A stretch of DNA of 64,000 bases from Ancylonema sp. (taxonomy: Eukaryota), in NCBI GenBank assembly GCA_050230475.1, contig JBFLGF010000084.1, positions 1-64,000 on the forward strand. The letters are read 5' to 3'. The notes beneath the pieces were generated by a model that was given only the letters and a program-made list of their open reading frames with translations, did not search any database and had not been told where the DNA came from. Both the position numbers and the translations under genes were made by a program. Positions 5,284 through 54,800 of this stretch are shown here, piece after piece (within the stretch, counting starts at the first letter, position 1; every line of letters starts with the position of its first letter).

Positions 5284-6270
5284 AGGGCATTGGGCTGGGA
5301 GTGCTTCAATCTGCCCTGGCTTCGGGCCACCAGATCAGGTGTTACACCTACGTCGACAAAGACGACGTGAGCCGACGTGTGGCGGCAGCGATTCTTCGAA
5401 AACTCAAAAAACAATTCCCGGACCAGCTCTCAGATGCTGCCCTCCTTGGATTTGATGCTAGACTGCCTCGGAACATCGATCAGTGCAGTCCCACTTTTCT
5501 CACTAATCTGGTCGCCAATAATGGGCCAGTGGACGTGCTTGGAGCCACTTGGGAGTGCTAGAGTGTTAGCCGCGCGGGATACCGTCAAGGAATTCATGAC
5601 CCACGCTTCCGTTTCTTCTTCAATATGGTGGCAATCATCAATTTCTTCCAACGGGAGCAAAAATCCCCCCTAATATACATCCTCGAAAACACTTACCCCG
5701 GGGAACGGTGCACGACAGCTGTGCAGAATGCCCAAAATCTGGTGCAGGGATTTCTGGGAGCACCCATTCCCCTTGATGCTGCGGATATGGGATCGGTGGC
5801 GCACACAGTACGGCTGTACTGGCAGAGACGGCTCCTGACTCCAGAACTTCTTCAAGCCACTATGCCAAAGATGATGGTGCCCAAACCCACGCTGCGCTGG
5901 ATTCTGGGGCCTCACCACGTTCCTACAAAACCTGGTCACACAGACGAGCGTCCTTTTGCACCTTGGAACGTGGTCGGCCAGACTAGAATCTGCATGCCAA
6001 CAGTGGTCTCCTACATTCGGAGCAACGCCTACCGCAGCAAGTCCAATGGGGAGCCTGGAGAGGGCGAGGTTTTCAATCTGGCACGGGAGGAGTGGGAGGA
6101 GCCAAACTGCCAGGAGAAGGAGCAAATGATGGGCTACATGGCAAACGAGACGGAGTGCCCCCACGCATCAGAAGCAGAACGCTCCATGCGCCTCGGTCGA
6201 GCCCTGGCGTGGCCTGGATGCCAACGTGATGCTACACTTAGGAGCAGTGTTATTTGTTGCCCATGCGTAG
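5284..6270 (+). pseudogene. DNMT3/DRM-like C5 cytosine methyltransferase domain in Ty3/gypsy pol (family A, copy 1)
   Basis: GIGLG (end of motif I), YVDKD (II), DVLGATWEC*SVS (IV; stop 5559-5561), YILENT (VI), HTVRLYW (VIII), EKEQMMGY (IX), RLGRA/LDANVM (X, frameshifted). Confidence 0.85.
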
Positions 6271-6499
6271 GAGTCCCTCCCCACTCAGCTTGGTTCATCA
6301 ACTGGGGGAGGGGCCACCTTGCATCCAGCCTACGCCAGCATCCACTACCTCCATCCCCTCAAAAGCATGGTTTCAACCCCACCCTCATGCGTCCCATCTA
6401 CATCAACGGTCCAGCGCGCAGCAGCCGGACGTATCGTTTCCGCACTTCTGGCATCCGATATGCCCACAAATGCAGCCAACCCACCTGAGGCGGAGGGGG

Positions 6500-6826
6500 G
6501 GAGAGTCAGAAGTCCACCTCAGCGAGATAAACAAGAAAAAATCAACGTGGGAGCCAGCCTTCAGGAGCAGGACCAGCCCAGAGTCCTGACCATGCTGAAC
6601 GCGAACAGTGATCGATTTGCATTCAGCATCGAGGATCTGGAACCTTCGAAGTATAGCGGGGAGCCGATGCAACCGGAGCTGACTTCAGACAAGCCGATCT
6701 TCCGTCCCCCGCACAAATTGGGTCAAGTGGAGCTCGATTTTGTGGAGGCCTAGTGTTCCAAGTTGGAGAAGCTGGGGTTCATCAGAAGGTCCCCGCAATC
6801 CCAATATGCATCCGCTACAGTGGTAG
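6500..6826 (+). mobile_element. N-terminal part of Ty3/gypsy reverse transcriptase directly after the DNMT
   Basis: ..FAFSIEDL..ELTSDKPIFRPPHKL..EA*CSKLEKLGFIRRSPQSQYASATVVV, a typical gypsy RT start. Interrupted by an LTR at 6827. Confidence 0.8.
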
Positions 6827-6902
6827 TATAAGGAGCGGAAACTTAGTGCGGAAAGGGGAATATAAGAAATGGAAGGAAGAAATGTGAAAGAGTAGAATAT
6901 GA
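6827..6902 (-). mobile_element. LTR fragment of family D
   Basis: Matches the first 76 bp of the LTRs at 19194 and 22695. Cut by N6903. Confidence 0.85.
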
Positions 6903-10870: not shown

Positions 10871-12022
10871 ACCCTCCCTAGTTGGCCGATCGGTAATCCC
10901 AGTGGGCTCGGCCCTTGGACCAGATTACGGTCGTACACCCAACGGGAGCACGCGGCAGCCGCGGGGTTTCCGAACGGGGCTCCCAGCAGGGTTGACGCCG
11001 GGGGCGGTCAATTTGCAGGAGCCGCTTGCAAAAACCCTGCCTCCGCCAAGCACCTCGCACGATATTATGTCATCCATAACGGAGATGGAGACAAAGAAGG
11101 GGAGACTTGGGACCAAATGTGCTGAGTTGAAAGCTCAGGTGCAGGTTGTAATCAAGCATCAATTGCCATAGGGTCAGGCTTTAATGGTGGGGGGACCCAC
11201 AACAAGTCAAGATTTGAGTTCAGTGGTCACGCCGGGAGGGCTGACACTAGGCGAGAAAATGAGAGCCCTCGCTGTCTCTCTTGTAGCACAGGCCCACACA
11301 AAGGTTCCTGATGTCGAAGAATCCCCTCAAGTCTCATCTAACAAGAGGGCAACAACAAACTGGAATGTGGTAACATTGCCAAACGATGATGGCTGCTTCA
11401 CAATGGACGGCATCATTTTGATGGACGCAATTGTCGACACGGGGGCAAAGAAAATGATGATCTGTGCAGCAGACAACACGTCGACAACGCCAACAAACTT
11501 CAAGACAACCTGCAGAAGAACAGTTCGGAGCGTCACACTCGGCAGCAGATTCCGCATCGACAATCCCTTCTTCACCGACAATCCAAGAAATTATATGCAG
11601 CAGACAAGTCAAGAAAAACAACAAATCGACAGAAGAGGTGCATGCCACAAGAGAAACTTTCCAAACTCAACGGCAACACCTTTCCCAATGATTTGCAAGA
11701 AACAATCTTGGATCAAGCTATGGCCCTAAGGATGAGCAATGGCACCAACGCCAAAGATTGCTTCGAGAAGTCAACAAACACCTGGAAGTGCTCAACGCAA
11801 AAGTGTTGGAGAGGGAATATCTGGACTCCATCGCACTCCGGAAGGAAAACATTATCCCTGCAATGCCAACAAGAGAGACACTTTCCCCTTTTCAACGCCA
11901 AATGGCTCAAGCAACGCAACGAGCAGCAGTGGAGCGAGCAGTAAGAGAGATTCGCTGCATTCTCATGTTCCAGCATACTAGTGGCACATCTCAAGGCAGG
12001 CCACAAAATCAGCAAGCATAAA
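10870..12022 (+). mobile_element. family B retrotransposon fragment: aspartic protease plus the linker that precedes the DNMT
   Basis: AIVDTGAKKMMI protease motif at about 11430. 11680-11955 is homologous to 41478-41667 plus 46870-46975, which lead into the DNMT at 47140. Confidence 0.7.
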
Positions 12023-17029: not shown

Positions 17030-17770
17030 CCCATACAGATCCTCGTCTGTCTAACGATGTTCCATGGAGAGAATGGACGCACATCCGTGTGGCCAGGCTT
17101 GGTAGGAACATGGTGGGGTCCCAGGATCCAGCGAAGGGTGGAAGTGGGCACCATCATCTTGGGCAAGGCAGCTTGCAGCACCTCAAGTGTCAAGAAGTTT
17201 TGCTAGTAGAGACGTACCCGATGGGCCGCCGAGCCCATGTCTGCCGCGTCAAGGAGGATTGGTGCACCCAAAAAATCTTGTACCAAATCCTGGGCATTTT
17301 GAAATGCCTTCGTGTAGCGGTCCCCGGGGTAGGTATTCTCCAGGATGTAGATAAGCGGCGACGTTTGCTCCCACTGAAAGAAGTTGATGATCGCCACCAT
17401 GTTGAAGAAGAACCGGAATCTGGGGTCATGTACTCCCTGGCGGTATCCGGCCCTGTTAACACTCTGGCACTCTCAGCTAGCACCCAACATGTCGACTAGG
17501 CCGTGTCTGGCCACCAAGTTTGTGAGGAAGGTAGGGCTGTGCATTGGTCTATGTTTTGCGGCAGGCGATCTTCAAATCCATGGATGGCAGCATCTAGCAG
17601 CTGGTCTAAAAACTGATGTTGAATCGTGCGAAGAACTGCCGCTGCCACGCATCTGCTCACATCATCTTTGTCGACGTACGTATAACATCGAATCTGGTGG
17701 CCGGAAGCCAAGGCGGACCGAAGTACCCCCAATCAGATGCCTCCAAACAGTTCCAAAACATGGAGACCGT
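17030..17770 (-). pseudogene. DNMT3/DRM-like methyltransferase domain (family A, copy 2)
   Basis: GLHVLELFGGI* (motif I), YVDKD, DMLGAS*ECQSVN (IV), YILENT (VI), AHRVRLY (VIII). Collinear with 5284-5980. Confidence 0.85.
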
Positions 17771-19193
17771 CTTGCAAAGATTAGGGCGCTAGTTGACATG
17801 TGGTGGTGTTGGTGGGGATGGCGTTGTACATCTCTTGTCCCACCCAAGACGAGGTCGGGTGGATGGGATCTGGATGGAGGTGTTGAGCTTGCCGCAGGCG
17901 AAGTATGGCATTCTCCCGTCGGGTACGGTGGTTGGTCACCACCGCTTGCAGTTCAGCTGCAATGGCTGCGTCACGTAAGCGAATGGCTGCCATCTGATGT
18001 GGAGCGGCATGGTAGCCTACTTCTTTGTCCTCCTCCTCCTCACGGATTTGGTCGTAAACCGTGCCTTGCACGTCTAGCAGGTATGCTGCTTCGTCGATCA
18101 AGCCGACCATGAAGGCAGTAGCTACCACTGGAGGAGTGGAAGTGTGACATGTGGCAGATAGAGAAGAGGATTTCAGTCTACTGGATTTGTCAAAGTACCG
18201 ATAGGTAAATTGTTCTAGTATAGGCATCATAGATTCCCTTGGCTGCCCGTATGAACTCCATTCCCAATAAGATATCATAGGCAGGGGTGTCTATGATTGA
18301 AGCATGAACCAATCGCCTATGCTCATGAGGGGTGTTTCTGGCACGGACAAATTCAAGGGGTTGAGGAGTGGTCCCACGAGAACTGGCCAGCGCTCCATCA
18401 GCCGTGATGAATTCGATGCCGCGCACCAATGCGGGGGATGTTCACCCCCACGGCTACCGCATAACGCTTGCTCATCATAACACAAACCGCTCCCGTGTCG
18501 ATGATGACTTGTTGGGGGATGCAGTTGTTTACGTCGAGTACGGCTTTAGAGTTGTCAAGCAAAAGTGCGGCCGCGTGTGTCTTGGACATCTCCTCCTTTG
18601 CTACCGCAAGTACAACTTCTTCTTGCTCCATCCTCGGATGTCGTTCCTCGTTCGTGGCTTTCTCCCAGATTGCTGCTGTCAACTCAGCCAGGAGCTGCTG
18701 ATTGTCGTTGATTGAGGTCTGAAGACGTGCTGCTGCTTGGAGTGGAGTCTTGCCTTGCACGGGGTCCCCCCCCACAGATAGTGGGTCCGGGAACGTGTGG
18801 TCTGGCGGGAAGTGGAGGTTAGTGGTTCTAGGGTCCAAGCTGGAAGCGGGCAAGGCATGATGAAATGTCTGGGGAAGATGACCGGCTCCTGTCCGCTATC
18901 CTGCGATGTCATCTTCTTCCTCCTCCTCCTCCTCCTCCTCCTCTTGTTGTGGTGTACCTAACGGGACAGCTGCGGGGCTAAAGCGGACTCGACGGACAAT
19001 CTGAGTGGCTTCCTTGGTAGTTGCGGTCGGTATGGACACACGTATGGATCTGCGGCTGGCCACTGCAGCATGTGCTGGTCGAAGGTAGGTGAGGGCCATG
19101 GTCTGGTACTTGTAATCTGGCGAGATCTGGGATCGCAACTTCTTCCTCGCTTGAACAGACATGCCGTCCATTCTTCTCTTTTGGATGGACTCT

Positions 19194-32885: not shown

Positions 32886-35062
32886 CAAGGGGCCACGGGT
32901 GGTTGGTCTCTCAGAGATCGTATGTAATTGACTTGCGCCAAATCGCGTATCCACCACTCAACACTCGAACTCTCCACTTGGAGGTGCGAGCAACTAACAT
33001 TAAATACCGTTCGCAAATAAAGTTTATCAAATAAATGATGTCTGATTTCTTCGAAACTTAAATGCTCCCCGCCTTCCCGAGGCACACCCACTTCATGGAA
33101 GTGTGTCGTGTGGATCTGCAAATCAAAATCACACGGTGAGAAAATGGAATGAGTTGCTTGCAAACGGCAACTTTCCGCCGACTTAGGTTTCACACATTGT
33201 ATTCAAAAGCGCACCACACCAAATGTCCCATATTGCCCACCTCTCTCGGGTTGTAAATCATCTTCCTCCCCCCATTAGCATTGGTGCAAAACCGGGGATC
33301 TGGGTCTTCCGCGTCATGACACAAAATTTTGGGCCAATGATAGACCATTCTCTCCACCGTCATCGTTGACTTTTTGCTCATCGGGGACCACCTGTTGCTC
33401 CCAAACAAGGGGGGACCCGCACGGCACATTGCTGTGGAACACTCGAGCGTGCCATGTGTCAGCCACGGACGCCCCTCATAATTGGCCAACACGTTGAGGA
33501 GCGTGCTGGGAGGGGGAACAAACATGTACTCGTCCCAATTCAGCACCAACACCCACTTGGCCTTCGCTCGGTTCCGGTACAAGCAATCATGCAGCGACAA
33601 AATCTGCACCCCACCCAAAACCCCAACCCGAACCCCCATCAGCAACACCAGCCACTACCCATCCCCACTATCCCCCCCCCCCCCCCCTTGTGCGAAAAAA
33701 TCCGACTCACATGACCACCCCCTAGGACCTCGTACTTTGGAATCTCCCGAAAGGGGCACCACATCCACCCGTCCCGAACTAGAGATAAGGGACCAAGTAC
33801 TCCGCGACGACATGAGTTAGGGCCCCTGCATCGTATAGCGTGACGTGTGTGACTCCTTGAGCTGCGTGGTACTCGACCCACTCCACCATGGGCCGGACCT
33901 CCACCTCCTCCCTTCACACATGGGGTGCATACACTCGCGTAGTGACTCAACTCCTCGTCGCGAGGGGGCTCGATGACGTACTCGTGACCGGGCGGTTCCC
34001 TGACACCCGGTTATCGAGGCAAGGGTGAGGGTGAGGTGGTTGCGGTTGAGGTTGAGGTTTGGATCGTGTTACTGTGTTGAGTTGCATGTTATGGGTTCGG
34101 GTACTAGGTTTGGGGTTGTGGGGATTATGTGAGGTGAGTATGCAGAGAGGCTTACTTGTAGAGTACGATTTCTTCGGCATCGATTGTGGCGAGGGCTGTC
34201 CCCCCGCTTGTATTGGTGGATGAGATGAGGAGGCACTGGAGGAACGAATGAGAGGAGGCCACGTGTCAAATCGTGGGTTGCAAAATTATGATGAGGTACC
34301 GAGGTGTGGGCGTGATATCCGAACACAAATCCAAGCATGCGCTCCCTTTTGAGTTTGCTGTGTGGTAGGAACCCAACCTGAATCACGACAGTGTCGTAAG
34401 TGAGGTCCCCATGCTCCTCAGAATACAAAACCTGCGCTTCTCCTTCCACCCTTCCCCCCTCCGCCCCCTCCCACCAACACCGCGTCAAGCTCCTGCCATC
34501 AAAACCCCAAAGAGATAAGGTACAGTCAGCAGGTGGGTCCAGTTCCAGTTACTAATGAGGTGTCGCAGATGGGGGGGGGGTGGCTCACTTTTGAAGAGAC
34601 TCCTTCATCACTCGCGCTCCCAACCCTACAGACGCAATCGCGTTTCCTTGCATGCGGTATGCACTGAAATGGATGTATCCGTAGGGGCCCCTGGAGGCGA
34701 CCTGAGCCGAACCAAAAACCCATAACCCTGAGTTTTTGCATCATTACTGATTTGCTCCTTGCTTGCGATCTTCCCCTGCCTGCTCCTGCCTCCATGTAGG
34801 GACACATCACAAAAAAATTCGGGCTCTTTTTTTGCAGAAGTTTTTTTTGTTTTCTGTTTTTTGTTGTTTTTTCCTTGCGATTTTGAAACCCTAGTACCTT
34901 GAGGCGCGAAGAATCGTGTTGAGACTCGGGCTTCAGGAGCTCCAATCTTTGAAGGTAGTGAACGTACCCTCGCCACTTTCCATCATCCCCGTCATCGCCA
35001 CTGCTCTGGTTGCTGAGCGACCCCAGAACTACTGGGGCACTACCTGCCACATTCAAGTCCAT
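32886..35062 (-). pseudogene. GT92/DUF23 glycosyltransferase (GALS-like), frameshifted
   Basis: QILSLHDCLYRNRAKAKWVLVLNWDEYMFVP, GRKMIYNPR, QIHTTHF, RCWWEG..YDTVVIQ. Frames broken in 33650-34620; exon limits approximate. Confidence 0.6.
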
Positions 35063-36399
35063 GCACCATTCAATCTCTGTTGAATTCTCCTGACCTCAGG
35101 TGTGTGAGGACCTGACACTTGAGCAGAGTATGATGACCGAGCTCAGTTCCTTCAGGCAACAGATTTATGTGTAAAGTTCCGAATCACTACAGATCGCAGG
35201 AAGGTAGTACACGTGGTAAACCACTCGGGCAGAGATGATATGACTTACCATTTATATCGTCTCGCACACACAGTGTAGGTCTGTGAAACCCCATTTCTAT
35301 TCGGACATCAAGGACCAGGTAGGCGAGTCCGAGAAAGAAGGTTACCACTGCTATGGCCGCAAAAACATTCGCTACGCAGCCCCAAGTGGGCACGTGTCGA
35401 TACTTCCTGATCAGCCAAACCCCGGAGGAAGAAAAAAGTGATGTGCATCGGTCAGAAAACGGATTTAACCTTGTTGACCTGGACGTCGTTCTCGTTCAAA
35501 TTTTTCGATCGAATTCATATTTCTCTACTCCACTTCTGAATGTAAAAGAGTTTTATATAAGTTCCTTGTACACACCGTGGCAATGGAAGTCGGCCATTGA
35601 CGTGCATGCGGCTAGAAGTTGATCGGGGGGTGTCCTCGGGAGAAGTGCCGGGTGACCCTGAGGTGGGTAGCAATTGAATGTTCTCATAATTGGGTCTGTG
35701 TAGATGAACTCGTTGTGTGGGCTCCTTCGCTTTGGGTCGAGCGAGGTTTGCAGCCCAACTGGAGGAGGGAGTGCCCATCATATATGAAAACACAGAGGGT
35801 TATCATGAGGAATTGGGTTGGGCACGTGATGGTGATATGAATGAAAATTCAGATTGAGGACCTGCTGCGGAATGTGATTGGTACTTACAGAGCAGGAGCA
35901 GTGGGCCGTAGGCAGCCTACACTAAACCTAGACTAGGTCTACACGACATTTTTTTTTGTGTACGGCTGGTGAGGACTTCGAAGTACTGGCTAAGTTTGGA
36001 GTGTTCAACGCTTATCTTGGTCTTGGTAAAAAAATGCTTTTTGGACTCGGGCCCGACAGGAGGGTGGCGCAGTGATTAGATTCGTGCGATACCGCTTCGA
36101 AGACAAGAGTCATGTATTATATTAAAACACACTCGAATACCTCTTTGGCACTTTCCTCTATGTAAGGCTTGCATAATCACTTTGTGCAACATTAGATCAA
36201 CCTAATTCCTTTAATGGAAAAATTGACTCTCAACATATTTTTCTAATATTCTAGTAGCACTCATCATCACGTGAAATTATGTTGTGTACAACTCACGTGT
36301 ATACTTTGTTTATAACTTGCGTACATTATTGAAATCTCGACAAGTGAGCTATCTCACAACTTCATTACATAGATTAATGAGGGCATAATAGCCAGGACT

Positions 36400-38462
36400 A
36401 CATCCCGGCGACACGCTCGGTGGGCGGCCACCCTCGCTGCCCACCATTACACCATCACCTATCGGAAAGGTGCCATCAATGGAAAACCTGATGCCCTCTC
36501 ACGAAGGCCAGATCTTCAACCCCCTCCCCTCCCCTCCCTCCCCATCATCCCGCCCCCAGCCACAACTCCCTATCTTTTCCACACCCCTCACCTAATCGGA
36601 GCTGCGGTGCTGGTCAGGCCAGATGATCCCCTCCTTCCTAAAGTTGCAGCAGCCCAAGCGGCAGATCTTGCATTGTTTGCACTCAAAGCACATGTTCTGG
36701 GAGGAGCTGGCGAGGAGTCAAACCCCGCACTCCTAGCAGGCAGCCCATCGGGCAGTTCGTGGGGTCAGTATGAGGTTAGGGGGGGTCTGCTGTATAGTCA
36801 AGGCAAGCTCTGCATCCCCCCCATTTCCGGGGCCCTAATCCTTAAACTACTACAGCAAAATCATGACAGCCCGTTGGCGGGGCACTATGGGGTGGCGAGG
36901 ACCCAGGCGCTACTGGCGCAGTACTACACCTGGCCCGGACTTGCTGCGGCGGTTGCCAAATACGTGGGGAGTTGTGATACTTGTGCGCGCAATAAGGTGG
37001 TGCGACATGCTCCCTACGGTCTCTTGTCTCCTCTTCCTATCCCTTCCAGGCCCTAGAGAAGCGTGTCCCTTGATTGGATCACCGACCTGCCTCCAAGCCA
37101 CTACCACGATGCTATCCTCGTGGTCGTGGACCGCCTCACTAAGGCGGCCCACTTCATTCCTACAACTAAATCCATGGCGGCTCCGGACGTGGCTCCACTT
37201 TTCCTCCAGCATGTGGTTCCGGCTCACGGTCTTCCTGACACCCTAGTGAGCGATCGCGATCCGGTGTAATATTCACTTCCCACTTGTGGCGGCGGCTGCT
37301 AGAGCTGCGTGGCATTCAGGCCAATCGCTCTACGGCTTTCCATCCCCAGACGGACGGGCAGACGGAGCGGTTGAATTCGGTGCTGGAGCAGTACTTGCGA
37401 GTACTTGTCGGACTACCAACAGTCCGACTGGGCCAGCCTCCTCCCTCTGGAAAAATTTTCATACAACAACTCGCGCCATTCAGCCACAACAATCTCCCCA
37501 TTCTTTGCCAACTACGGTTTCCATCCCCGGATGTCCCTGCTCCCCCCAGCCCCAGCCTCCCGCACCCCTGCTGCCGATTCCTATGTCGCGCAACTTCGGG
37601 AGGCCCAAGATATTTTGCAAGAAGCTCCTCAAATCCCGCAAAGCCATGGAGGTTTCGGCCAATGGAAAACGCCGACCGGCTCCACCCTTCGTCGTTGGTC
37701 AACAAGTGTGGTTGTTGAGGCGCCACATCACGACAACCCGACCCTCGTCAAAGCTGGATGTTCGTCGACTCGGTCCCTATCCTATCATTGGCCAAGTCGG
37801 CTCCTTAGCTTATCGCTTGGGGCTGCCTTCCCACCGTTAAAATCCACCCCGTCTTTCATGTGAGTCTCCTGGAACCACATGTTCCCAACACTTTCCCGGG
37901 AAGGGTCGTGGCGCCTCCTCCAGCCATACAAGTGGATGGTGTCCCTGAGGAGTTCGAGGTCCACTCAATCCTAGATTCGCGAGTTCGGCGCCGCAAGTTG
38001 GAGTATCTAGTGGATTGGGTCGGCTACGATGCATCTGATTGCACTTGGGAGCCGGCAAATGCACTGACCAATACTGCAAATGCGGTCGCCGATTTCCATC
38101 AAAAATTTCCGTCTCGGCCTCGCTGACACGTGCCCTCCTTTTGATGTTGGATCCTGTTAGGATCCACTCTCTAGCATTAGTTCCGCTAGCGAGTGTTCCT
38201 AACCTTAGTTAAGACCTTAGAGCCTTAACATATGTTCACTCCTTAGTTTCTCCGACTCCTACCCTTTGTCGTTGTGTGTGTATGCTCTTTTTGTCACTTA
38301 GCGACACTATTTTGTACTCAAGCACTTGAGAAGTGTCCTCTCAAGTGCCCTTATCAATTCATGTCTTTTACACATCGTGTTCTCTTCCTATTCCTGAAGT
38401 CTGAGATGTGTGTAATTGTGCTTGTTACAAGCAGGGCATTCCTGCTTAGGAGCTGCCTTACA
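36400..38462 (+). mobile_element. chromovirus 3' half: RNase H end, integrase, chromodomain, 3' LTR (38156-38462)
   Basis: [90 protein letters not shown]. Confidence 0.95.
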
Positions 38463-39392: not shown

Positions 39393-41477
39393 TGTAATGC
39401 TGACATGGCTTATCTAGACCAATGAGTGAACAGATCGAAACACTACGCTAGATCGTCTAGCCTAGACGAAATCGACTGGCGGTCAGATAAACTGACGACA
39501 AGTGAAACGGAACCGGGTGGCGAACCGGGATGCTAGCACATGTGACATTATCATACTCAACACACCCCCCTAATGTTATATGTGCTACAATCGATACTTG
39601 AGAAAGACCCTACCAAAATTAAAACATACCCAACAGCTTCTTGTTGTATCGAACCACCGTTACACTGGCATGCTTAGTGAGCATGTCAGCTCCCATCTGA
39701 TTTGCATGGCATTTCTCCACTGTGATTTCCATCTCCTGATGCACTCACAAAGTGATACCTCGCCAAAATTTGCTTGGAGCGCGGGTGGTACATCGGGCTA
39801 TGGACGATGTCGATGGCTCGCTGACTGTCCGGGAGAATCTGAATGGGTCGGTCTACAGCTCCCCTGCCTGCCATTTGCATCTGCAGCTGATGAAGGTAGC
39901 TTGCCTCTTGGGTTGCCATCGACAGTGCCATGTATTCGTTTTCGCAGCTGCTAAAAGAAGCAGTCCCCACCAGCTTGCTTTGCCGACTGATTGCCCCCCC
40001 AGCAGACATGAACGCGAACCCCGCTCGACTCCTGCCTGTGTCTGGACAGGTGAGATAGCTTGCATCGCTGATACCCCAGATTTCAGTGCTGGCCCCTCTC
40101 TTACAACAGATTCCCCCATCTTTTGTCCCTTTTAGGTACCTGAGCACATGTTGGATCCCGTCCCAATGTGCTCGTCCCGGGTCAGTGCTGAATCGATTGA
40201 GCGAGCTGATAGCTGCAGAGATGTCCGGACGAGAGCATGTCGCAAGGTAAATCAGACTACCCAAAGCTTGCCGATAAGGAACATATGTCATGGCCTCCTT
40301 GTCTGCATCATTTTGAGGGGAGTCTTGCTGGCTGAGCTTGCTTACAGGAGGAAGGGGTGTGCTGACCGAGCGACAGTCCTGCATGTCGAAATCGCGAGAA
40401 CCTCTCCCAAGTACTTTTCTTGCAGCAAGTAGATGTCCCCATTTGGCTCCAGTCTGATTTCCATGCCCAAAAAGAATTTAATTGTGCCAAGGTTTCTGCC
40501 AAGCGTAGAGGAGGCACTCCACGATTGCTCCGATTGCTTCGACGAGGAGAAGTTGTCTACATCGATGAATCAGGTATGATGGCAGGGCTGGCTGGTAGGT
40601 TGGCAGGCTGGCTTGCTGGTGCAGGGACGGCGATAGCAGGTGTGAGATCAGGATCCATGGAGAGGTCGGCGATGTCTGGAGGCGTCATGTCCAACTCCAG
40701 GTTGGAGAGGTGCTGTAGGGAGTGGCGCCGTACAGGTGAGCAGATCTGGGAACTCGACATCCATGTCGCCTTCATCAGCTCCTGGCAATCTCCACCACCC
40801 TGGCTTTGCCGTTTCAATGAAGTCTGGGGAGCTGACGTTGTACACCATTGCATTCGATGGATCCCAGACTCGATACGCATTGAAGGTGTTGTTGTAGTTG
40901 ACCAGGGCTTCCATGTAGGCCACTGGCTCGAACTTTCCACCTCGCTTACTCTTTTGGATCTGACAGGATGCCTTGTTGCCAATGATGTGTAGTTTGGAGA
41001 GGTCTGGCTTGTGACCCGTCCACTTTTCGATTGGTGTGCAGGACATGTTGGAGACAGTAGTCAGAATGCGCAGGGTGTTGGCTGCCTCGAAGACTTCTCC
41101 CCAAAGTTAAGCAGGCACCTTGACTGCTATCATCATGGTCCTGCACTTGTCCTGCAGCGTTCTGTTGAGTCGCTCATTGTGTTGCTCTCAAGGGAGTAGG
41201 GAGGGGTTGTTTACAGGACGAAGCCTTCTCTGGCCAGATGACGTTGGAGAGCGAGAGAGGTAAACTCACCACCATTGTCAGATCGGAGGAAAAGAAGTTT
41301 GTATCCCGACTCATTCTCTGCCACTGGCAACTAGTCTAAGATAAATGAGTGAACAGATCGAAACACTGATGGTAGGCTAGACGGAATAGACTGTCAGTCA
41401 GCTAAACTGACGAGACGCGAAACGGAACTAGGTAGCGAACTGGGAGGCTAGCACATGTGACATTATCATACTAAACA
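39393..41477 (-). mobile_element. internally deleted copia (second LTR family)
   Basis: Similar LTRs at about 39393-39562 and 41335-41477, PPT at 39563. Integrase remnant RSDNGGEF, RT/RNase H VPYRQALGSLIYL..SDASY. gag-PR and the RT core are missing. Confidence 0.85.
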
Positions 41478-41667
41478 CCTTTCCCGATGGTTAACCAGAA
41501 ACTGTCCTGGATCAAGTTATGGCCCGGTGGATGAGCAATGGCACACTCGCCCAAGAGTGCTTCGAGACGTCAACAATCACTTGGAAGTGCTCAATGCAAA
41601 AGTGTTGGAGAGGGAACGTCTTGACTCAATCGCAGCTCGGAGGGCCAACGTCATCCCTGCCATGCCG

Positions 41668-44600
41668 TGTGAAATACTCATTTTCTCTTATGAGTATTCG
41701 TAAGGGTGCGAGATGTAACTTAGATCATTCGCATACTTTGCTCGGAATAGATCACTTAGAAGTATTAATTTATCTTTGGCTGAGTACAAGAGTAAGTCTC
41801 TGCTCGAATAAGAGGATAGGGCGCGGCGGCGGAGGCGGCGCCAAGCTGACCAATGAGGAATCAGCTTGGTCCGATTTAAGTTCTGACTGAATTTAGCGAA
41901 TCTAATCCGATACGAACTTAACGAAATCGCGTGTCCATATTGCACGATTTCGTACTTCAAAGCACGCGTCACACTTTAGCATTACACACTCAACACACCC
42001 CCTTAATGTTAATTGTGACAAAAAGTAAAACTGCCGAAACTAAAAAACTAACGTAACACATGACAAATGCTACATCAACCAAAATAAAACATCACGTGAT
42101 AAAACTGGACACCCTACATCATTCTAATCAACTTTTTGCTATAGCGAACGACTCCCACACTCGCATGCTTAGTCATCATGTCTGCTCCCATATTCCCCGC
42201 ACTGATTTTAACGAAGTACATTCTCCACCCTGTCGCGCACGAAGTGGTACCTGGCCAGGATTTGTTTCGTGCGAGCGTCCGGGTTGTGCACGATGTCCAG
42301 TGCCGGCTGGCTGTCCACGAGCACCTTACAGGTACTCCCACCCCAACGTCCCCTTGCATTTGGAGTTGGGAGTTGTCGCAGAAAGATGACCTCCTGTGCT
42401 GCTTCGGAGAACCCCATGTATTCCGATTCGCAAGAGCTCAGACTGGCATTCCCCAACAGTTTCGACTGCCAGCTGACCGGACCACCAGCCGATAGGATCA
42501 CAACAAACGCTGCTCGGGGGGAGCGTGAAGTGTCCGGACAAGTAAGATGGCTTGAGTCGCAGTAACCCCACAGAGCAGTCGAAACTCCCTTCTTGAAACA
42601 GATACCCTCCCCACACTTGGTGCCTTGCAGGTATCGCAGCACATGTTGGACCCCCTCCCAATGAGCCATGCCGGGGTTATGGTTGAACCGACTGAGGCAG
42701 CTGACAGCTGCGGAGATGTCTGGTCGCGTACAGACTGCCAGGTACATAAGGGATCCAATGGCACTTCGGTAAGGGATGGCTGCCATTGTTTTCATGTCTG
42801 GTGCAGATGTTGGCGAGTCCGTCTGGCTGAGTTTGCAACCAGGGGGCGGAGGAGTGCTGGCTGCCCGAGGGTTGACGACCGGGTACCTCAAGAGCACCTC
42901 TCCCAGGTACTTCTCCTGCAGCAGTTGAACATCCCCCCCTGGTAGGCGCCTGATCTCCATACCCAGTAGGATTGCAGCACCGAGGTCCTTCATCCTGAAT
43001 CTGCTGTGCAGAAAACCTTTCACCCCTTCGATGAGCTCCATCACCTTGCCGATGACAAACATGTCATCGACGAACAGCCCTAGCAGGATCCGGCGCCCCC
43101 CCTGATGGATGGCGTACACGCAGAAGTCGGAGGTGAGTCGCTCCAGCCCGAACTCAGAGAGTGCCGCCTTGTCCACGTGCATGTTCCACATGCGGGGGGA
43201 GTGCTTCAGGCCATACAGCGCCTTGAAGAGCGGAAGCACCTTCCCGGGCATCTCCACCCCGAACATCCCCTCTGGAATTTCCAGGTAAACCTCCTCCTCC
43301 AAGTTTGCGTACAAAAACGCTGTCGTCACATCATCCAGCTGTTCCATATGCATCCCCTCTGATGCAGCAGCTGCAAGCATTAGGCGTATGCTTTCAAACC
43401 TGGCTGTTGGGGAGTACGTTTCCGTGTTGTAGTCGATCCCCTCAGCTTGCATGAAACCCCCGTGCGACGAGGCGCGCTTTATATTTCTGCACCTCCCCCG
43501 ACAGGCCCCTCTTCCTCTTAAATACCCATTTGCTTGTGATGACAGGGTGACGAGGCCTGTCCACCACGGTGAACACCTTGTTCTCCACCAGCGAGGCCAC
43601 CTCCGCCACGCACGCCACCAACCACCGCTCCGAGTCAGGTGACTTCATGGCCTGCTTGAAGGTTTTTGGGTCATCTGCAAAACTCTCCATCGTAGCCAGC
43701 ATGAGCATGTCCTCCATGTACCGCGGAGGGACGCCTCGACTCTCCTAGGAGCTGCGGCGCAGGGCTGGGGCAATTGGAAGGGGTGGGGGCTGGGCTGCAG
43801 AAGGGTTCTCGTCGACTGGGGCCTCCGCCGGGGCTGGGACCGCGGCTGGGGCTCGGACCACGGCTGGGTTTGTTTTTGCGTCTAGGACCGCGGTTGGGGC
43901 CTCTTCTGGGGCTAGGAATGCGGCTGGGGCCTCTGCTGGGGCTGGGACTGCGGCTGGGGCCCCGTTGCAGGTTGGGGCACCGTGTGCTGCGGTCGGAGGC
44001 ACTCTTGAGGCGGGTGCGCTTGTATTTGCAGGTGGGGGAGGAGCAGCAGGGAAGACGAGCGGGTTTTCTTCGACGTCTTCAACTCCAGCAACTGCTGACG
44101 AAGGTGCGCGCCACCAGCTTGGAGGAGCAGCTTCATCGAAAGCGAGAGCAGCGACGTCGTACACCTTTTGCCGCTCTGTGTCCCACACACGGTAGGCAAG
44201 GCTGTGCGACGTGCAGCCCACCAAGACACCGATGAAGCTCATTGGTGCGAACTTGCCTCCTCGCGCAGACTTTGGGATCTGGCAAAACGCCTTGCAACCC
44301 AGCACCCTCAGCTTGGAGAGGTTGGGCTTTTGCTCTGTCCACATCTCTCACGGCGTGCAAACCAGGTTGGTGGCTGGTGACATGTTGCGTAGCATGTTGA
44401 TCGCGTGCAGCACCTCAGCCCACATGTAGCTAGGCAGCAACGAAGTTGACATGACTGTTCTGGTCTTGTCCTGCACAGTGCGGTTCCACCTCTCCGCCAC
44501 GCCGTTGCTCTCCGGGGAGCGAGGGGGTGTGGTCTGCAGCTGCACTCCCAGCAGCGCCATTGACGACTTGTACGCGTTGGAGGTAAACTCCCCCCCGTTG

Positions 44601-46869
44601 TCAGAACGAAGCTTGAGTAGCTTTGTTTTGGACTGCCCTTCTGCCACCCCTTTCCACTCCATAATTATGCGAGCTGCGTCAGACTTCACACGTAGCGTAA
44701 ACACCCATGAGAATCTTGTGAACATGTCCATGATGCCTAGGAAGTAGACCGCTCCCCCCAGACTGCTGGGCTGGACTGGACCGGCCAGGTCCATGACCAC
44801 CAGCTCGAGTGCGTAAGTAGTCCCATGGCTAAAGGGGACGGCCGGGTGTGGCGGTCGAGTCAGTTTGCCCATGGCATGCGTCGCACGGGCTAACTGCACC
44901 AGAGATCTGACCCAACCCTGTTGCCATATTCCCATACAGGAGTCGTCGGAGGGCCCCCTCTCCACTGTGACCGAGACGGCGATGGAGCATATCCATGGAA
45001 AGCGAGGTGCTGAAGACCTCCACGCACCGGCTGGAGGGTAGAGAAGGAGTCGTAGATAGTATCTTGCAATCGAGAGTTAGTCGCCCAGTCTTAGACTCTG
45101 TCATTAGGGCCACCATTCCTCCCCTAGCATTCTAGATGACCGTTTTTCCTGGAATCTCGTTGAACACGTAGACAAAATTTGCTGCCCGCAGAAGTTGTAA
45201 CGAGAGAATGTTGAAATGCATGGATGGCATGTAAAGTACATTTTCCAACCTCAGTAATTGTGTCCCCGATTCTGCGTCCACCTCTAGAATGAATGTCCCA
45301 CTGTGCGTCACATAAACACTGCCATCGACATGATTGACCTGGAATGGTTCTGAAAGGGATGATATCGTGCAGAAGTAGGATGTGTCGTGACATATGTGAT
45401 GGCTGGCTCCAGAGTCAGCCAGAAAGTTGCTTGACAGGGCTGAGTTGACATAGCTCACAAGTACCTCACCCGCTTGCCCATTTAGCACCCCCGACTGTTG
45501 CATCTGCACACTATGATGAGAATCACTGTGTGCAAACTTTGCAACAACCGCATGGCCACCATGAAAGAATGAAGCCTCCCCACTTGCTCCACTTTGCATC
45601 TGGTCCTTCTTTCGCTTGCACGCCTTCTCAACATGGCCATTCTTTTTGCAGAATGTACAACTCGCCGACTCCGCCTCCGGGCAGTCGCTTGCGTAGTGTC
45701 CCTTCTCTCCACAACAGTAGCACATGGTGTAGGTAGTTGGACGTCTGCTAACACCGGCCTGATTTGCATTACCCCCCTTGTATTTCTTCTGCACCCATAA
45801 CACCTCCGCCTTGGCCACCTCGGCCTTAACCAGATCTGCTAAGGCAGCCGATCAAGGAGGTGGGGCAGATTGCCGTTGGTAGTCATCATCATCATCCCTC
45901 ATATAGCGGCGAAGAGCTCCTCGAGGTCCATTCTGTCATTGGGCCGAGAGTGCAGCCATGTCCGTCCTCTTGAGATGCACGTACCGATCGTTGGGTTGAT
46001 CAAGGAGTTGCCGCTCCAAGATGTCATCCTCCAAACGGACCTTTTGTTGCCTGCAATTTGGCCATCACCGACTCAAAACCTGGATATCGTCTCCTCCTGC
46101 GGTTTCTATTTCCTGATGTTGAAACTGGAAAAGGGCCTTTTGGGCTGCAGATTTTTCCCAATTCTGACACACGTGCGAACTTTCGCTCAAGCTTGGTCCA
46201 GATGGCGACTGGATCATCGAGGAGTGTGGTGATCGCCACGAGCTCAGTGTCAGAGATGGACTCAGCTAGCAGGCACGCTGCCCTGGTGTAGTAATCGATG
46301 TATCGGTCGTACTTGTCGGCAGCGATTGTCGCCGCCTCGATGGCTTCCGGGGTTGCCACTTCCACACCCAACTCGTGTACTCTTGGTTGCGGCGGTCTGA
46401 CGCGATCCTCGTTTACTATGTCCCAGACCTTGTTGACCAGTTATCCCTTTTAGTCTGGCTGACCATTGACTATAGTTGTCTTTATTAAGCTGGTTACTTG
46501 TTGCCCTGAATCGGGTGCCATCGGATGACACGGCTCTGATACCATGTGAAATACTCATTTTCTCTTATGAGTATTCGTAAGGGTGCGAGATGTCACTTAG
46601 ATCATTCGCATACTTTGCTCGGAATAGATCACTTAGAAGTATTAGTTTATCTTTGGCTGAGTACAGGAGTAAGTCTCTGCTCGGATAAGACGATAGGGCG
46701 CGGAGGCGGAGGCGGCGCCAAGCTGACCAATGAGGAATCAGCTTGGTCCGATTTAAGTTCTGACTGAATTTAGCGAATCTAATCCGATACGAACTTAACG
46801 AAATCGCGTGTCCTATTGCACGATTTCGTACTCAAAGCACGCGTCACACTTAGCATTACACACTCAACA
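41668..46869 (-). mobile_element. full-length Ty1/copia retrotransposon
   Basis: LTRs 46545-46869 and 41668-41995; PBS TGGTATCAGAGC (46533-46544, tRNA-iMet); PPT. gag knuckle CYCCGEKGHYASDC, PR DSGASHH, HRRLGH, RSDNGGEF, FVDDM, RNase H. Several frameshifts. Confidence 0.97.
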
Positions 46870-47119
46870 AACGTCATCCCTGCCATGCCGCCACGAGAGA
46901 CACTTTCCCCTTTTCAACGCCAAGTGGCACAAGCAGCACAACGAGCAGCAGTGGAGAAAGCAGTTCGAGAGATTCACAACAAGCGTCGATGGATGAGAGG
47001 GTTACAAATCAAAGCATAAGGCCTTTCTCTCCAGCCACTCACCAGAAGTGTGGAGCCTAGGTCCGGGGATCCCATCCTTCAAGCCGAGGCCATCGATACC
47101 ACTCCTATCACTTTCTCTC

Positions 47120-47750
47120 AGCTTCAACTCCAAACCGGCCTTCATTTGGTCGAACTTTTTGCTGGCGCCTGTTGCAGCACTCTGCTCGCACATTTCATGG
47201 CAGGCCACAAAATCAACAAGTACACAACTGTGGAGAAAGATCCGGTGGCAAGAGGCGTGTCTTGTCAGTATGTCACCAATCTCCATCTACGCTTTCCACA
47301 CTTGCTACCTCTATCAGCAATCGAGGGCTTCGACACAAGGTTACCTGACCATGTGGAGTCCGTCAGCATCACAGTGTTAAAGAATTATGCTGCTCGCCAC
47401 GGTCAGATCGACTTCGTGGGAGCCGGTTTTCCTTGCCAGCCAATGAGTCCTGCAAGAAATGGACTTGGAGTCAGAGACGATCGTTTCTCTCCATTCTTCG
47501 ACATGACAATAATTTTGACTTGATGCCAACGTGAACAGCAAGGTCGACCATTTCAGTACCTGCTCGAGAACGACCATCCATCGACGACCTAGCCATCTGA
47601 ACAATGAAAACATGAGGTCGGCAAATACCTTTCTTCTCGCATTCCCTGGAGAGCCTCTCCTCCTGGATGCAGCTTCAGTTGGCGGTCCCACGCATCGACT
47701 TCGGCGCTACTTGACAAACATCATGGCAGCCAACAAGTTACAAAATTCCA
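47120..47750 (+). pseudogene. C5 cytosine methyltransferase domain (family B)
   Basis: GLHLVELFAGA (I), TVEKD (II), IDFVGAGFPCQPMS (IV), QYLLEN (VI, after stop 47521-47523), LLDAASVGGPTHRLRRY (VIII). Truncated at the C-terminus. Confidence 0.88.
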
Positions 47751-48980
47751 CAATTGAAGGTGCACTTTTGACGAATACGACACAAATGATTGACAATGAC
47801 TTCAACGGCAGAGTCACCGTCATTTCTTATGTCATCTACAACCAAGTGAACTCGACTACCATCCTCTTAAATCTTTTTGAGACCGCCGAGTATTTCCAAT
47901 ACAACTCGGGTAGCCCTTCCTCCCTGAGCAAAATGAAGAATGGTCGGAAGTTGTTGTATGAATATGGGGGCATTACAACTACACTCTCCACGACCTCGCT
48001 CGGTGGAGCATGCCCAGGCGGCTATTGCGTGATTAATCAACATCCACCCCCTTTTTGTAGAAAGGGAGCTATAGCTACCCTAGTTGCTGGTATATTAATG
48101 TTTTTTGATAGCTTATTCATCGAAGAAAAGATTTTGGTGCTAAAACACACACACATTCTCGAAGGTATGAGTCCTCGTCATAAATCTAAATCACCCATCT
48201 ACAATAACAGTCGAGTTAGATGTTGTAGGCGAGTCTCGTAATTTTTGGGCTTGTTTTGTGTGTATGTGTGTAATCAAGACCAAAAATAGATAATCATAGT
48301 GACATTGAGAGGTGGTAGGCTCTTGAGAACGCCCGCGACATGATATATTTTCTCCATGTTGTCTTCAGACGGAGCCTCGCCCTTGCCTCAACGCGCAATG
48401 AGGGTGTAGTTTTGTGTAGTTCTAGGGTGTAAACGTATTTTCTATATCGCTCACTTACACTGAGTGCAACACAATCAACGTTGATCATACTAGTTTTGGA
48501 TAGGCAACATTTCTTCCATATATTTAGGTGACCTGTAGGTGTATTTCATTTGGAACGGATAATTTATATCTGTCATTACAGTAGCAATGTCTAACCCCTT
48601 AACTGTCTATATTTTGCATGGTCTCTTAGAGGGGGCGATATTCAATCTGACGGCGTTTGTAATTTTGAGTCACAATTATCATTTAGTACACAATACGCAC
48701 GAGTAGATGTGGACATCACTAAGTTTGAGTCAACATTCGTCATAGCAATGTCACAACATTTATAGAGCCTACATCATGTCTTATCACACATTACTCATGC
48801 ATACATCATTGTTCGTAATGACCACCTTAGACTGGAATCATTATGATGGGATTTAATCGACTCTAAGTAGCCAATCCAATGTCTCTACACAAGCAATCTA
48901 TCATATCTATGAAATGGCTGCCTAAGTTGCAGCCATGTACAATCATCCTTTCCGAAGAGTCACTAGTCCATTCTCTCACT

Positions 48981-51886: not shown

Positions 51887-54800
51887 ATGGACCTGGCGGA
51901 TGGCTGGACTCGAGTAGGCGGTCAAAGTCGCAAGAGCCAAAAAAAGAAGATAGGAAACTCGCGTATCATTGATCACAATTTGCCTGCTGAAAGGATCAAT
52001 ATCGGTGTTGAGGTGTCACCTTTCTCAGATCAGCTTGACACCGCTGAAATATCCGTAGCTGCTGCTTTGGACGTCCAGACTGAGAGCTCTTCCGCGGATT
52101 TGAGTAATGGACGTTATGTTAGCCACCTCCGAACTCATGGTGATTATACCACTATGCCCGGCTGGTATTCAGAAAAATGCATCAGTGGAACAGGTAATGC
52201 AGGGAGGAACCGCAAAAATGGAAAACAACGCGTGCCACGGACAGCTGAGGAGGAGGTTGGCAGGATCATTACTAGACTTGAGCAAGGAAGGTCGGTGACA
52301 TCTTGAGTGAATAGCAGACAAGGCTGACCTCCTGATTATCGTGATCCAAAAGGATATGCATATGGCATTAGTCGATTGGGTGACTTCGGGGTGACTTGAG
52401 TGACATGATCAGTGATTACGTGGACGACCTTTTCACCCTTGAAGGGGAGTGTTTTGCCTGTTCAGATTAATGGTGCAGCAGTCTAACTTCTACAGCAAAT
52501 TTTCAGGTGAATAACCATCTCAATACACCTGAATTGTGTGTCTCAAATTTGTTAGCCCTCCACATTGCCGCCAGTTGCCACCGGCATGTCCCACCAACTT
52601 CAGAATCTCAGAAGATCTCAAAGTGTCCGGGGGCATCGATTCGATAATTCATGAATGGTATTTGGCATCGGAGTCAGTAACTTGCACCAGAAGCTTGTAC
52701 TTTTGCGGTCGCCTGAATATGGTGTGGCTTGTTGCAGGTCAATGGAGGAAGTTGGACTTGCTTTCCCGATTAATGGCTGTTCAGAATTCCTTGTCTTCTG
52801 AAGACGCTTCTTCTTCCACAGCTGATGTCGTTGTGTCAGAGAAATGCGAAGTGGAGGCAACTCCACTGGAAAATGTACGATCATACAAATCAGACCACTA
52901 GCTTTTCCAGAAACTGAGACAATCTTGACACAATCTGCATGATGCTGTTGTATGACGATGTCTGTATGATGTTGAATGCGATGATAACGATGATGTATGA
53001 TGGTGAATGTAAATTTTCGGCGCAGGTCAAAAGCGAAGAGTTCCCTGGCGCCCCTTCTTTAGACATTGTAGTCTATGGCATAGGAAGTTTTTCTGACTCC
53101 GAGTCCTCGAGGTGCCAGCTGTCATTGAGCTTCCTTTTGGCACATATGATAGAGGTGAGTAAAATCAGAGGGTTTCATTGACCGCCTGCATCGCCTTCTC
53201 TATACGTTTTTTGTTCTGGATTTGAGATCTCTTGCCCCCCAACACCAAGGGTACTAAAGATGTGCGAGACAGTATGTTTTTAGTGACTAAGCGCTGGGAA
53301 TGAGTCGCCAGAAGTATGTGGAATGCTGTGTCCATGGGCATTCTCTTATTTAAGATTGTACGTTGTGTTATACTCCAGGCAGAAGGTTCTGGCTATCATG
53401 CCAGGGTACATGTGTTTGACCCCGTTCTCACTACAATCGAACATGCAGCTTTAGAGAGTATAGGAGGTCATCCAATCACAGTCAATGAGGTGAGTTCCCT
53501 TTCCTTCTCCTAGCGAGGCAGCTGACAAACCATCACTTCCAAATTCTTATTTCTTGTTGTTAGTTCTTGTGTATACAATACTGCATAGAAGCATTAATAT
53601 AATAATAATAGAAGCATTAAAGCGAGGATATAGTGCAGCTCATTTGTCTCCCTCAAATTTTGTTCTCATGAAGGTGACCGAACAGACTTTGAAAATCATT
53701 ACTTCCTGAGTGTGGTCCGACGTTTGGTACAAGGGGCAGTGACTTGGTGCTGACAAATTTCGAGTACTTGTTCAGGAAGGGAGGAGAGTAGTGAGCGGAC
53801 CCACCATTTTCTACATGCCACATTGTGAAGCTCATCTCTACAACAATGTGAGCATCATCTGCTGTCCATATTCTGCTGTCCATATACTTCAGGATACTCA
53901 ATGGGCTGAACCTCCACGTACAGACAAGGTCCAGTACATGCAGAAGCGTATCCTTCCACCCTCTTTCTCTCTTTCCAACTCTTCTGAAAGTATCCTATCC
54001 GTATTTGTACCACAGCTGAGTCAACAGGAATGAGGGTGTAATAACTTGGCAGCGCTTGTGTTTGGTGTCTACTTCCACTCATTTTGCACATCAAGGCATG
54101 GGAATGTGTTGACAAATCTTTTGGGATTTGTTTCAGGTCTTAGAGGCCAACAAAGAGCCACCTGGCAGGCTCTAGCAGATTGCAATTCTAGGGAATAGTT
54201 TCGAAGGTTATCGGGATAGGTGAGATTTCCTCCAACATGCACAGATTCACGGATTGCACTTGCACAAACATCACATTATACATCACGTGACTTAGTGTTT
54301 GAAATTCACATTCATTGCTTTGCATGTCAGGGCTGAGCCGAGTATTGCATTGTGTTCCAGGTGGAGTTCAGGGTCCAATAAAGGGCCTACTCGCCCACAC
54401 ACTCTCCTGGAGGTGATTCCATTTTGTCCATGTTTAAGTTGATTATCATCAGATCTGAAGCGATTCCCTTTCGAAGCTGTCTGTTGCAAATTGGTCCACA
54501 TGTCGAATTTGTAACAGCAGATGCGACCAGTGATGTGTTATTATGACATCGCCCAATCTTCTTTTTAAAGGTGTAAAAAACGTCCAACAATCTTTTTTTG
54601 ACAAACCATCAAGAGTGTCACAAGAGGACTGAGCTTGCAAAAAAGAATTTTCTTAGGGTCGGGTGAAGTTTGCACAATCGAACGTGTTGTCCAGATCTGA
54701 CGTGAATACTTGTGTATTTCGATTTCCATTGGCATCCACATAGTTACAAATGTTTGACATCAAAGAAGCAAAAAATGTACTCATTGTGGTACATTTCATC

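Follow-up and report, generated by a model that had tools for sequence, protein, structure and literature searches.

Retrotransposons that carry a DNMT3-type DNA methyltransferase (DNMT) have been published for the streptophyte alga Klebsormidium and the dinoflagellate Symbiodinium (PMC5890265). For KnitGypsy-Dnmt3 of Klebsormidium nitens (de Mendoza et al. 2018, PMC5890265), the available parts of the paper describe a DNMT that shares a reading frame with reverse transcriptase (RT) and RNase H, together with DIRS-like repeats, and they report de novo CG methylation in yeast by SymbioDIRS-Dnmt3 domains. For DNMT3, two further papers (PMC12344493 and bioRxiv 10.64898/2026.05.21.726589) cite, in the portions available, the streptophyte and dinoflagellate elements reported in 2018 and no others. 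The subject here is a 64,000-nucleotide window of DNA from Ancylonema sp. (assembly GCA_050230475.1, contig JBFLGF010000084.1, positions 1 to 64,000), in which a stretch of 6.3 kb (41478-47750) holds a DNMT of one retroelement family, termed family B, alongside a related family A elsewhere in the window. The B copy in this stretch is dead and belongs to a variant of the streptophyte Gypsy-DNMT3 elements already described. As a whole, it is probably a Copia-interrupted fragment of a multi-copy retroelement, likely of Ty3/Gypsy type, with a first frame running protease-linker-DNMT, a sister relationship to family A and a DNMT predicted to methylate the element's own new copy. Taken separately, the identity as a Gypsy-type DNMT3 retroelement is very probable, and the proposed action of the enzyme in cis, drawn by analogy, is an evenly balanced proposition.

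A minus-strand Ty1/Copia element takes up most of the stretch (5.2 kb, 41668-46869); it landed inside the family B copy and is unrelated to the methyltransferase. With the Copia element excised, 41474-41667 and 46870-47747 form a single plus-strand coding run, linker followed by methyltransferase. The 5' part of the linker (41474..41667) shows 38% amino acid identity to residues 107-171 of the public protein P0001. The 3' part (46870..47121) is in frame with the DNMT, contains one stop at ~47017 and can also be aligned with the linker of the family A protein P0171. The DNMT3-like C5 methyltransferase itself (47122..47747) retains motifs I-VIII, including FPCQ at 47428 and HRLRR at 47693, and has lost motifs IX-X. 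The 5' end of the B copy is truncated by a piece of a second Copia-type long terminal repeat (LTR) at 41344..41478 on the minus strand, which is 83% identical to 39421-39563 and adjoins integrase and RT remains at 39600-41340.

The inserted element has the features expected of Ty1/Copia, namely TG...CA LTRs, a primer site and the order gag-protease-integrase-RT-RNase H, all on the minus strand. Its 3' LTR lies at 41668..41995 with an adjacent purine tract, its broken internal region (gag, zinc knuckle, protease, integrase, RT and RNase H) at 41996..46544 and its 5' LTR at 46545..46869; what is presumably the primer site was read from the sequence at 46533-46544. Pfam matches were obtained to Retrotran_gag_2, zf-CCHC, Pol_BBD, rve and RVT_2 (the last with an expectation value (E) of 5e-44), and the LTRs differ by six substitutions and three gap columns in 328. 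The insertion is bracketed by an exact 21-bp duplication (41647..41667, plus strand, identical to 46870-46890), which is present once in copy C, a second copy of family B in the window. A target-site duplication of ~5 bp is the norm for Ty1/Copia, and a 4-kb LTR element in the same window (19194-23215) has a 5-bp duplication, so the 21 bp found here depart from the short form. The long duplication may stem from an abnormal integration event, from recombination of two insertions close to each other or from the assembly itself; the Copia junctions were absent from the read contigs, and the duplication is known from the assembled sequence alone. A literature search, with limited coverage of subscription journals, found no description of such long Copia duplications. 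The Copia RT was also considered as the RT of family B and was rejected, as it lies on the opposite strand within its own LTRs and copy C has an empty site.

A first, sequence-only reading had placed a methyltransferase with a canonical FPCQ motif at 47120-47750 and had listed signatures that it shares with family A. All were located: besides FPCQ, these are GLHLVELF at 47137, GFDTRLP at 47326, DDRFSPFFDM, QREQ at 47527 and LDAA at 47663. The Pfam DNA_methylase match was marginal (E 1.5e-4, 21.8 bits vs a cut-off of 22), and identity to the family A methyltransferase was 40% over 134 amino acids. For comparison with the wider clade, a search profile was made from P0003 and rows of A and B. The number of representatives it matched was 4462 at E 1e-3, 921 at 1e-10 and 326 at 1e-30, and the best 150 of these were examined. 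Over 162 rows, some of them partial, three signatures were specific to A and B, namely F(D/E)xRLP (11 of 14 A/B rows vs 0 of 148 others), DxRF (13/14 vs 1/148) and QxEQ (11/14 vs 7/148). The remaining two, ELF (53 of the 148 others) and (L/I)DAA (70 of the 148), are common to the wider clade.

The type of enzyme was examined with P0181, a complete relative of B that has motifs I-X in unpermuted order and no introns, and in which the catalytic Cys, the motif VI Glu and the motif VIII RxR are all in place. A profile search against solved structures ranked DNMT3A/B/C first, with DNMT3A/B as best match (E 8e-20) vs 1.5e-9 for M.HhaI. A structure model of P0181 (predicted local distance difference test score 82) gave DNMT3A as its best Foldseek match, with E 5e-16 and a template modelling score of 0.80 on the target. 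Ranked by similarity and not by a tree, DNMT3 enzymes stand nearer to the B enzyme than DRM, DNMT1, DNMT2 and bacterial enzymes do. An Atlas search with P0113 returned generic DNA_methylase clusters only.

The link between this enzyme and a protease is provided by copy C. A retropepsin of which only the N-terminal half is left lies at 11358..11465 (plus strand), with DTG at 11436; it was detected with our own protease profile (E 2.1e-5 over the whole window). It is followed on the same strand by the linker (11467..11953, 43% amino acid identity to residues 32-198 of P0001) and, after an internal deletion, by a remnant of the DNMT start (11957..12019, 76% to residues 262-282). At the nucleotide level, the linker of the interrupted copy matches copy C in two parts, 41474-41666 vs 11675-11867 (82%, 193 bp, E 4e-50) and 46869-46975 vs 11847-11953 (87%, 107 bp, E 1e-30), and the DNMT start matches at 11966-12016 vs 47170-47220 (82%, 51 bp, E 1e-6). 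The linker match to 11680-11955, and its position behind a DTG protease, had been proposed from the letters alone and hold, except that the match ends at 46975 and not at 47100, because copy C has the internal deletion. The DNMT remnant at 11966-12016 therefore means that copy C unites protease, linker and B methyltransferase at one site. A Gag-like stretch at 9600-9900 on the plus strand, without a Pfam match, lies upstream and is possibly the Gag of copy C.

Public proteins were found to extend this arrangement. The C-terminal half of the protease opens P0002 (E 4e-10), which overlaps P0001 (95% over 128 amino acids), while P0001 runs from the linker into the DNMT, is 63% identical to the window over 254 amino acids and overlaps P0181 (96% over 230 amino acids). 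Judged from these overlaps, P0002, P0001 and P0181 tile the order protease-linker-DNMT in one frame. The outcome in which B is never linked to a protease or an RT was thus not observed, as B is linked to a protease.

The copy interrupted by Copia carries a stop at 47521-47523, a frameshift near 47573-47585 and a 3' cut-off at ~47747, just after motif VIII. Contigs from four sequencing runs were aligned to 46876-47860 (985 bases), and 179, 225, 132 and 11 contigs were obtained, of which 79, 100, 70 and 9, respectively, were less than 90% alike to the window. At 47523 most of the depth encoded Trp and not the stop (159 of 169 in run X1, 3483 of 3563 in X3 and 265 of 326 in X2; summed read depth is not copy number), and several contigs lacked eight letters at the frameshift site. 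Past 47767, no more than one or two contigs provided coverage, and beyond 47747 the others continued with different sequence. There are clearly many diverged B copies; the window copy is dead, and the complete intronless domain is present in others. Sequencing error as the origin of the stop and frameshift was rejected, since contigs of 129 bp on 47493-47621 showed no differences from the window in X1 and X3. The deletion junction of copy C was likewise found in contigs of three of the four runs.

These data bear on whether the fragment could instead be a processed pseudogene or other remnant of a host DNMT3 that lies among transposons by chance. The best relatives of solved structure are host DNMT3 enzymes, and the trees described below contain no host DNMT3, which leaves this alternative some room; it is, however, already largely refuted by the in-frame protease upstream, the many diverged copies and the nesting of B among retroelement-borne DNMTs, and can hardly be correct. 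Grouping with intron-containing host genes, which the sequence-only reading had named as a ground for abandoning its proposal, did not appear in these trees.

Family B was next compared with the described systems. Like KnitGypsy-Dnmt3, in so far as the available text describes it, families A and B carry an intronless DNMT3-type domain within a retroelement polyprotein frame, are multi-copy, keep the catalytic residues, show purifying selection (here for A, and weakly for the B linker) and come, most likely, from a streptophyte algal setting. In contrast to that element as described there, the A and B frame ends with the DNMT, which is placed behind the protease, and the RT, seen for A only, is in another frame. 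A DNMT in the RT/RNase H frame was found neither in B (P0180 and P0181) nor in A (P0164 and P0171), and occurs in Closterium relatives only; because this feature is lacking, and because both window copies of B have lost the ends at which DIRS-like A-coding-B-A-B repeats would lie, B is filed as a variant and not as a member of the KnitGypsy-Dnmt3 kind. No row named Klebsormidium was present among 21 proteins looked up. The SymbioDIRS-Dnmt3 elements of Symbiodinium also bear a DNMT3 and are, in the accessible text, the only ones with demonstrated de novo CG methylation, but they are DIRS elements with a tyrosine recombinase in a dinoflagellate host, and no protease-DNMT junction is described in that text (PMC5890265). 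The EpiLTRs of Euglena and Cymbomonas are Gypsy-type LTR elements with a cytosine DNMT; according to the portions available, however, this DNMT is sister to DNMT4 and occurs together with a DAM and a chromodomain, and its capture is described as distinct from that of the streptophyte Gypsy-DNMT3 (bioRxiv 10.64898/2026.05.21.726589). The Closterium elements P0182 (CAI7855100.1), P0136 (CAI5973665.1) and P0075 (GJP34393.1), annotated solely as unnamed or hypothetical proteins, share the zinc knuckle-protease-DNMT order, the DNMT3 type and, as in A, a Glu-Cys (EC) motif. They differ in that the DNMT continues in frame into the RT in P0182 and P0136, in their ~32-35% identity to B and in their separate branch. 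Literature searches, in which subscription journals were little covered and several papers were available in part (including PMC12344493, PMC10952607 and PMC13519894), found no description of DNMT retroelements in Closterium or zygnematophytes.

The mechanism proposed for family B follows from the cis model and from the activity of SymbioDIRS-Dnmt3 in yeast, as given in the available text of PMC5890265. A Gag would lie upstream of the B frame and an RT frame downstream (an RT after the DNMT is seen in A and in Closterium), and the element would make a Gag-protease-DNMT protein with DNMT at Gag-like amounts. The protease would cut the DNMT free from the polyprotein, the DNMT would be packaged in the particle, and it could then methylate CG in new complementary DNA (cDNA) before integration. 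The insert would arrive marked like host DNA or partly silenced.

Several observations weigh against this account. No B RT, integrase or terminal repeat was seen, and no B-linked RT was present in the window, as judged by profiles, or among the proteins. Two metagenome-contig scans and four viral-contig scans gave no related locus, five pattern matches in one viral scan proving unrelated by tblastn. The B linker shows weak selection, with a ratio of nonsynonymous to synonymous substitution rates (dN/dS) of 0.48 (p 0.032) vs 0.81 in the other two frames. B could be non-autonomous, a derivative in which Gag, protease and DNMT were retained, RT and integrase were lost, and mobilization comes in trans from A or another Gypsy family; that P0180 and P0181 end at the identical residue just after motif X would fit such a truncated element. 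P0164 and P0171 of family A have the same end point, however, and in that family the DNMT is flanked by protease on one side and RT on the other: behind the DNMT of family A copy 1, in another frame, comes the beginning of a Gypsy RT (6520-6831, RT profile E 5e-13). Note also that the B contigs seen were all at most 2.5 kb, too short for a downstream frame, and that both B copies in the window are cut by deletions. The non-autonomous alternative is therefore considered unlikely.

The activity of the enzyme is a further point of doubt. The S-adenosylmethionine site of B deviates, with FAGAC as motif I and H, L or R in the motif III column, which holds D in 134 rows and N in 19 across the clade. 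The modelled copy, P0181, has SC in place of PC at the catalytic Cys. No extra CpG loss was detected in B (observed/expected ratio 0.76-0.81 vs 0.76 for the window and 0.69 for Copia), and with KnitGypsy-Dnmt3 no methylation was obtained in yeast, an outcome that its authors, in the text available, regard as inconclusive (PMC5890265). Each of these would fit a weak or dead DNA-binding domain kept for binding or shielding cDNA or for target choice. Against such a domain stand the Cys, ENV and RxR kept in B copies that are ~25% diverged, and the whole fold of the model; moreover, active SymbioDIRS-Dnmt3 elements are also described, in the same partial text, as lacking CG depletion (PMC5890265). 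A domain without catalysis is accordingly rated quite unlikely, and a DNMT that methylates the new copy of its own element is kept as the working proposal.

The relationship between A and B was studied by phylogeny. Support for A plus B was 95 with FastTree (159 of the 162 rows, three being too short). Two IQ-TREE C20 trees, built from 46 and 26 rows picked by hand and both unrooted and without host DNMT3, gave the grouping 100/99. In approximately unbiased (AU) tests on groups defined after the first trees, placing B with the PC-type (Pro-Cys) protease-first rows was rejected (p-AU 0.0005), as was placing A with the Closterium EC rows (0.009). Fourteen columns are common to A and B and rare elsewhere, and the homology extends ~80 amino acids into the linker. 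It must be set against this that host DNMT3 is missing from the trees and that A and B are the longest inner branches, so that attraction is possible; moreover, the search profile came from A and B rows. If A and B had captured related DNMTs separately, or had swapped modules, their grouping would stem from host bias or long branches; the identity of only 40%, the unrooted trees and protease halves too short for congruence (pairwise scores were too weak) leave room for this. The 100/99 support under a site-heterogeneous model, the shared columns and the common linker make it very unlikely. We infer one capture behind the protease that predates the A/B split, because Closterium and other rows have the same DNMT placement. 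The earlier proposal of one ancient capture followed by diversification keeps its A/B grouping, in unrooted trees, but the capture moves back beyond A and B.

Two placements of the DNMT were distinguished among the relatives. In a Pfam scan of 29 proteins, an integrase followed the DNMT in 19 of 19 members of a large group, with RNase H before it in 16 of 19 and a PHD finger in 16 of 19, vs no integrase in any of the 10 proteins around A and B. With our own profiles, RT preceded the DNMT in 69 of the best 150, protease alone in 8, the order was protease-DNMT-RT in 1 and ambiguous in 1, and neither was seen in 71. The two placements are split by one branch (98/97; 97/95 in the second IQ-TREE tree). 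Seven protease-first proteins carry Closterium names, and P0182 runs zinc knuckle-protease-DNMT-RT in one frame. P0010, P0011, P0012, P0076, P0094, P0187 and others are Gypsy polyproteins of the order RT-RNase H-DNMT-integrase-PHD, two of them also with G-patch; a literature search with limited subscription-journal coverage found no description of a Gypsy element with PHD and DNMT3.

The residue before the catalytic Cys was then examined, as A has EC and B has PC. Over the 162 rows it is E in 103, P in 48, D in 4, S in 4, C in 1 and Q in 1, and the E/P state changed at least 13 times on the FastTree tree; a grouping of all PC rows was rejected by the AU test (0.0004). With that, PC or EC as a marker of lineage was rejected. 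The EC form as a sign of a dead enzyme was also rejected, because the other catalytic residues are near invariant (Cys 161/161, motif VI Glu 160/160, each of the two motif VIII Arg 156/158) and dN/dS between the two family A copies is 0.04 over 170 codons (p 1e-40; the synonymous rate is near saturation). The residue, P in B and E in A, is labile and by itself marks neither a lineage nor a dead enzyme. EC and PC variants do coexist here, as had been suggested, but this is general to the whole clade and no mark of A and B. A literature search on the EC motif found no description, with subscription journals little covered; the KnitGypsy motif alignment and domain order belonging to PMC5890265 may bear on this point and on the novelty of the placement.

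The window as a whole is eukaryotic and packed with nested retroelements, and it has plant-type genes. Two DNA runs and an ice metagenome contain the stretch (shares 0.67, 0.53 and 0.61), with no RNA run among the data sets listed as containing it. With Closterium proteins as the closest relatives that bear an organism name, a zygnematophyte or other streptophyte alga is the likely source. Family A copy 1 (5286..6831, plus strand; 58% to P0171) has a complete EC-type DNMT followed by the RT N-terminus, and copy 2 (17032..18583, minus strand) has protease, linker and EC-type DNMT. Two Gag-like family A frames, at 1-573 and at 23668-24298 on the minus strand, are 80% alike and without a Pfam match. 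The LTR element at 19194-23215 lies inside family A copy 2; its 516-bp LTRs are 92% alike, its internal region is G-rich with no Pfam match in the frames scanned, and a piece of its LTR at 6823-6902 truncates the RT of copy 1. Five single Ns occur (574, 5283, 6903, 16314 and 56485), three at the edges of family A matches; these may be assembly joins, across which the spacing of family A parts is uncertain. Chromovirus remains (Integrase_H2C2, Chromo) lie at 36370-38462, and their LTR at 38153-38462 recurs at 14906-15214 inside another Copia element. Directly after the B truncation, in low-copy DNA, is a 163-codon open frame (47750-48238, plus strand) without a usable Pfam or Atlas match. Likely host genes encode a glycosyltransferase family 92 (GT92) protein (33190-34500, minus strand), a DnaJ C-terminal domain (27300-28600, minus strand) and an SRR1 domain (53743-54030, plus strand).

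The window copy itself is dead; what gives the finding its value is the family, together with the EC/PC pair as material for tests, the wider EC majority and the two placements. Relative to the available text of PMC5890265, a DNMT that closes the Gag-protease frame is a new placement and would give many enzyme copies per particle. It is possible, though doubtful at present, that Gypsy-borne DNMT3s form a group far larger and older than the Klebsormidium case (326 clusters at 50% identity, E <1e-30), mostly Glu-Cys with the enzyme still active; on the same tentative reading the DNMT would have been placed either after the protease or between RNase H and integrase, the latter mostly with a PHD finger. 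If this is true, A and B would be a natural EC/PC sister pair within one genome, in which it could be asked whether Glu adapts the enzyme to cDNA still being made, or to RNA:DNA hybrids, in the particle. The comparison brings to light that Glu widely replaces Pro in motif IV under purifying selection, and the capture of the methyltransferase would be older than deep divergences inside zygnematophyte lineages and probably also among them.

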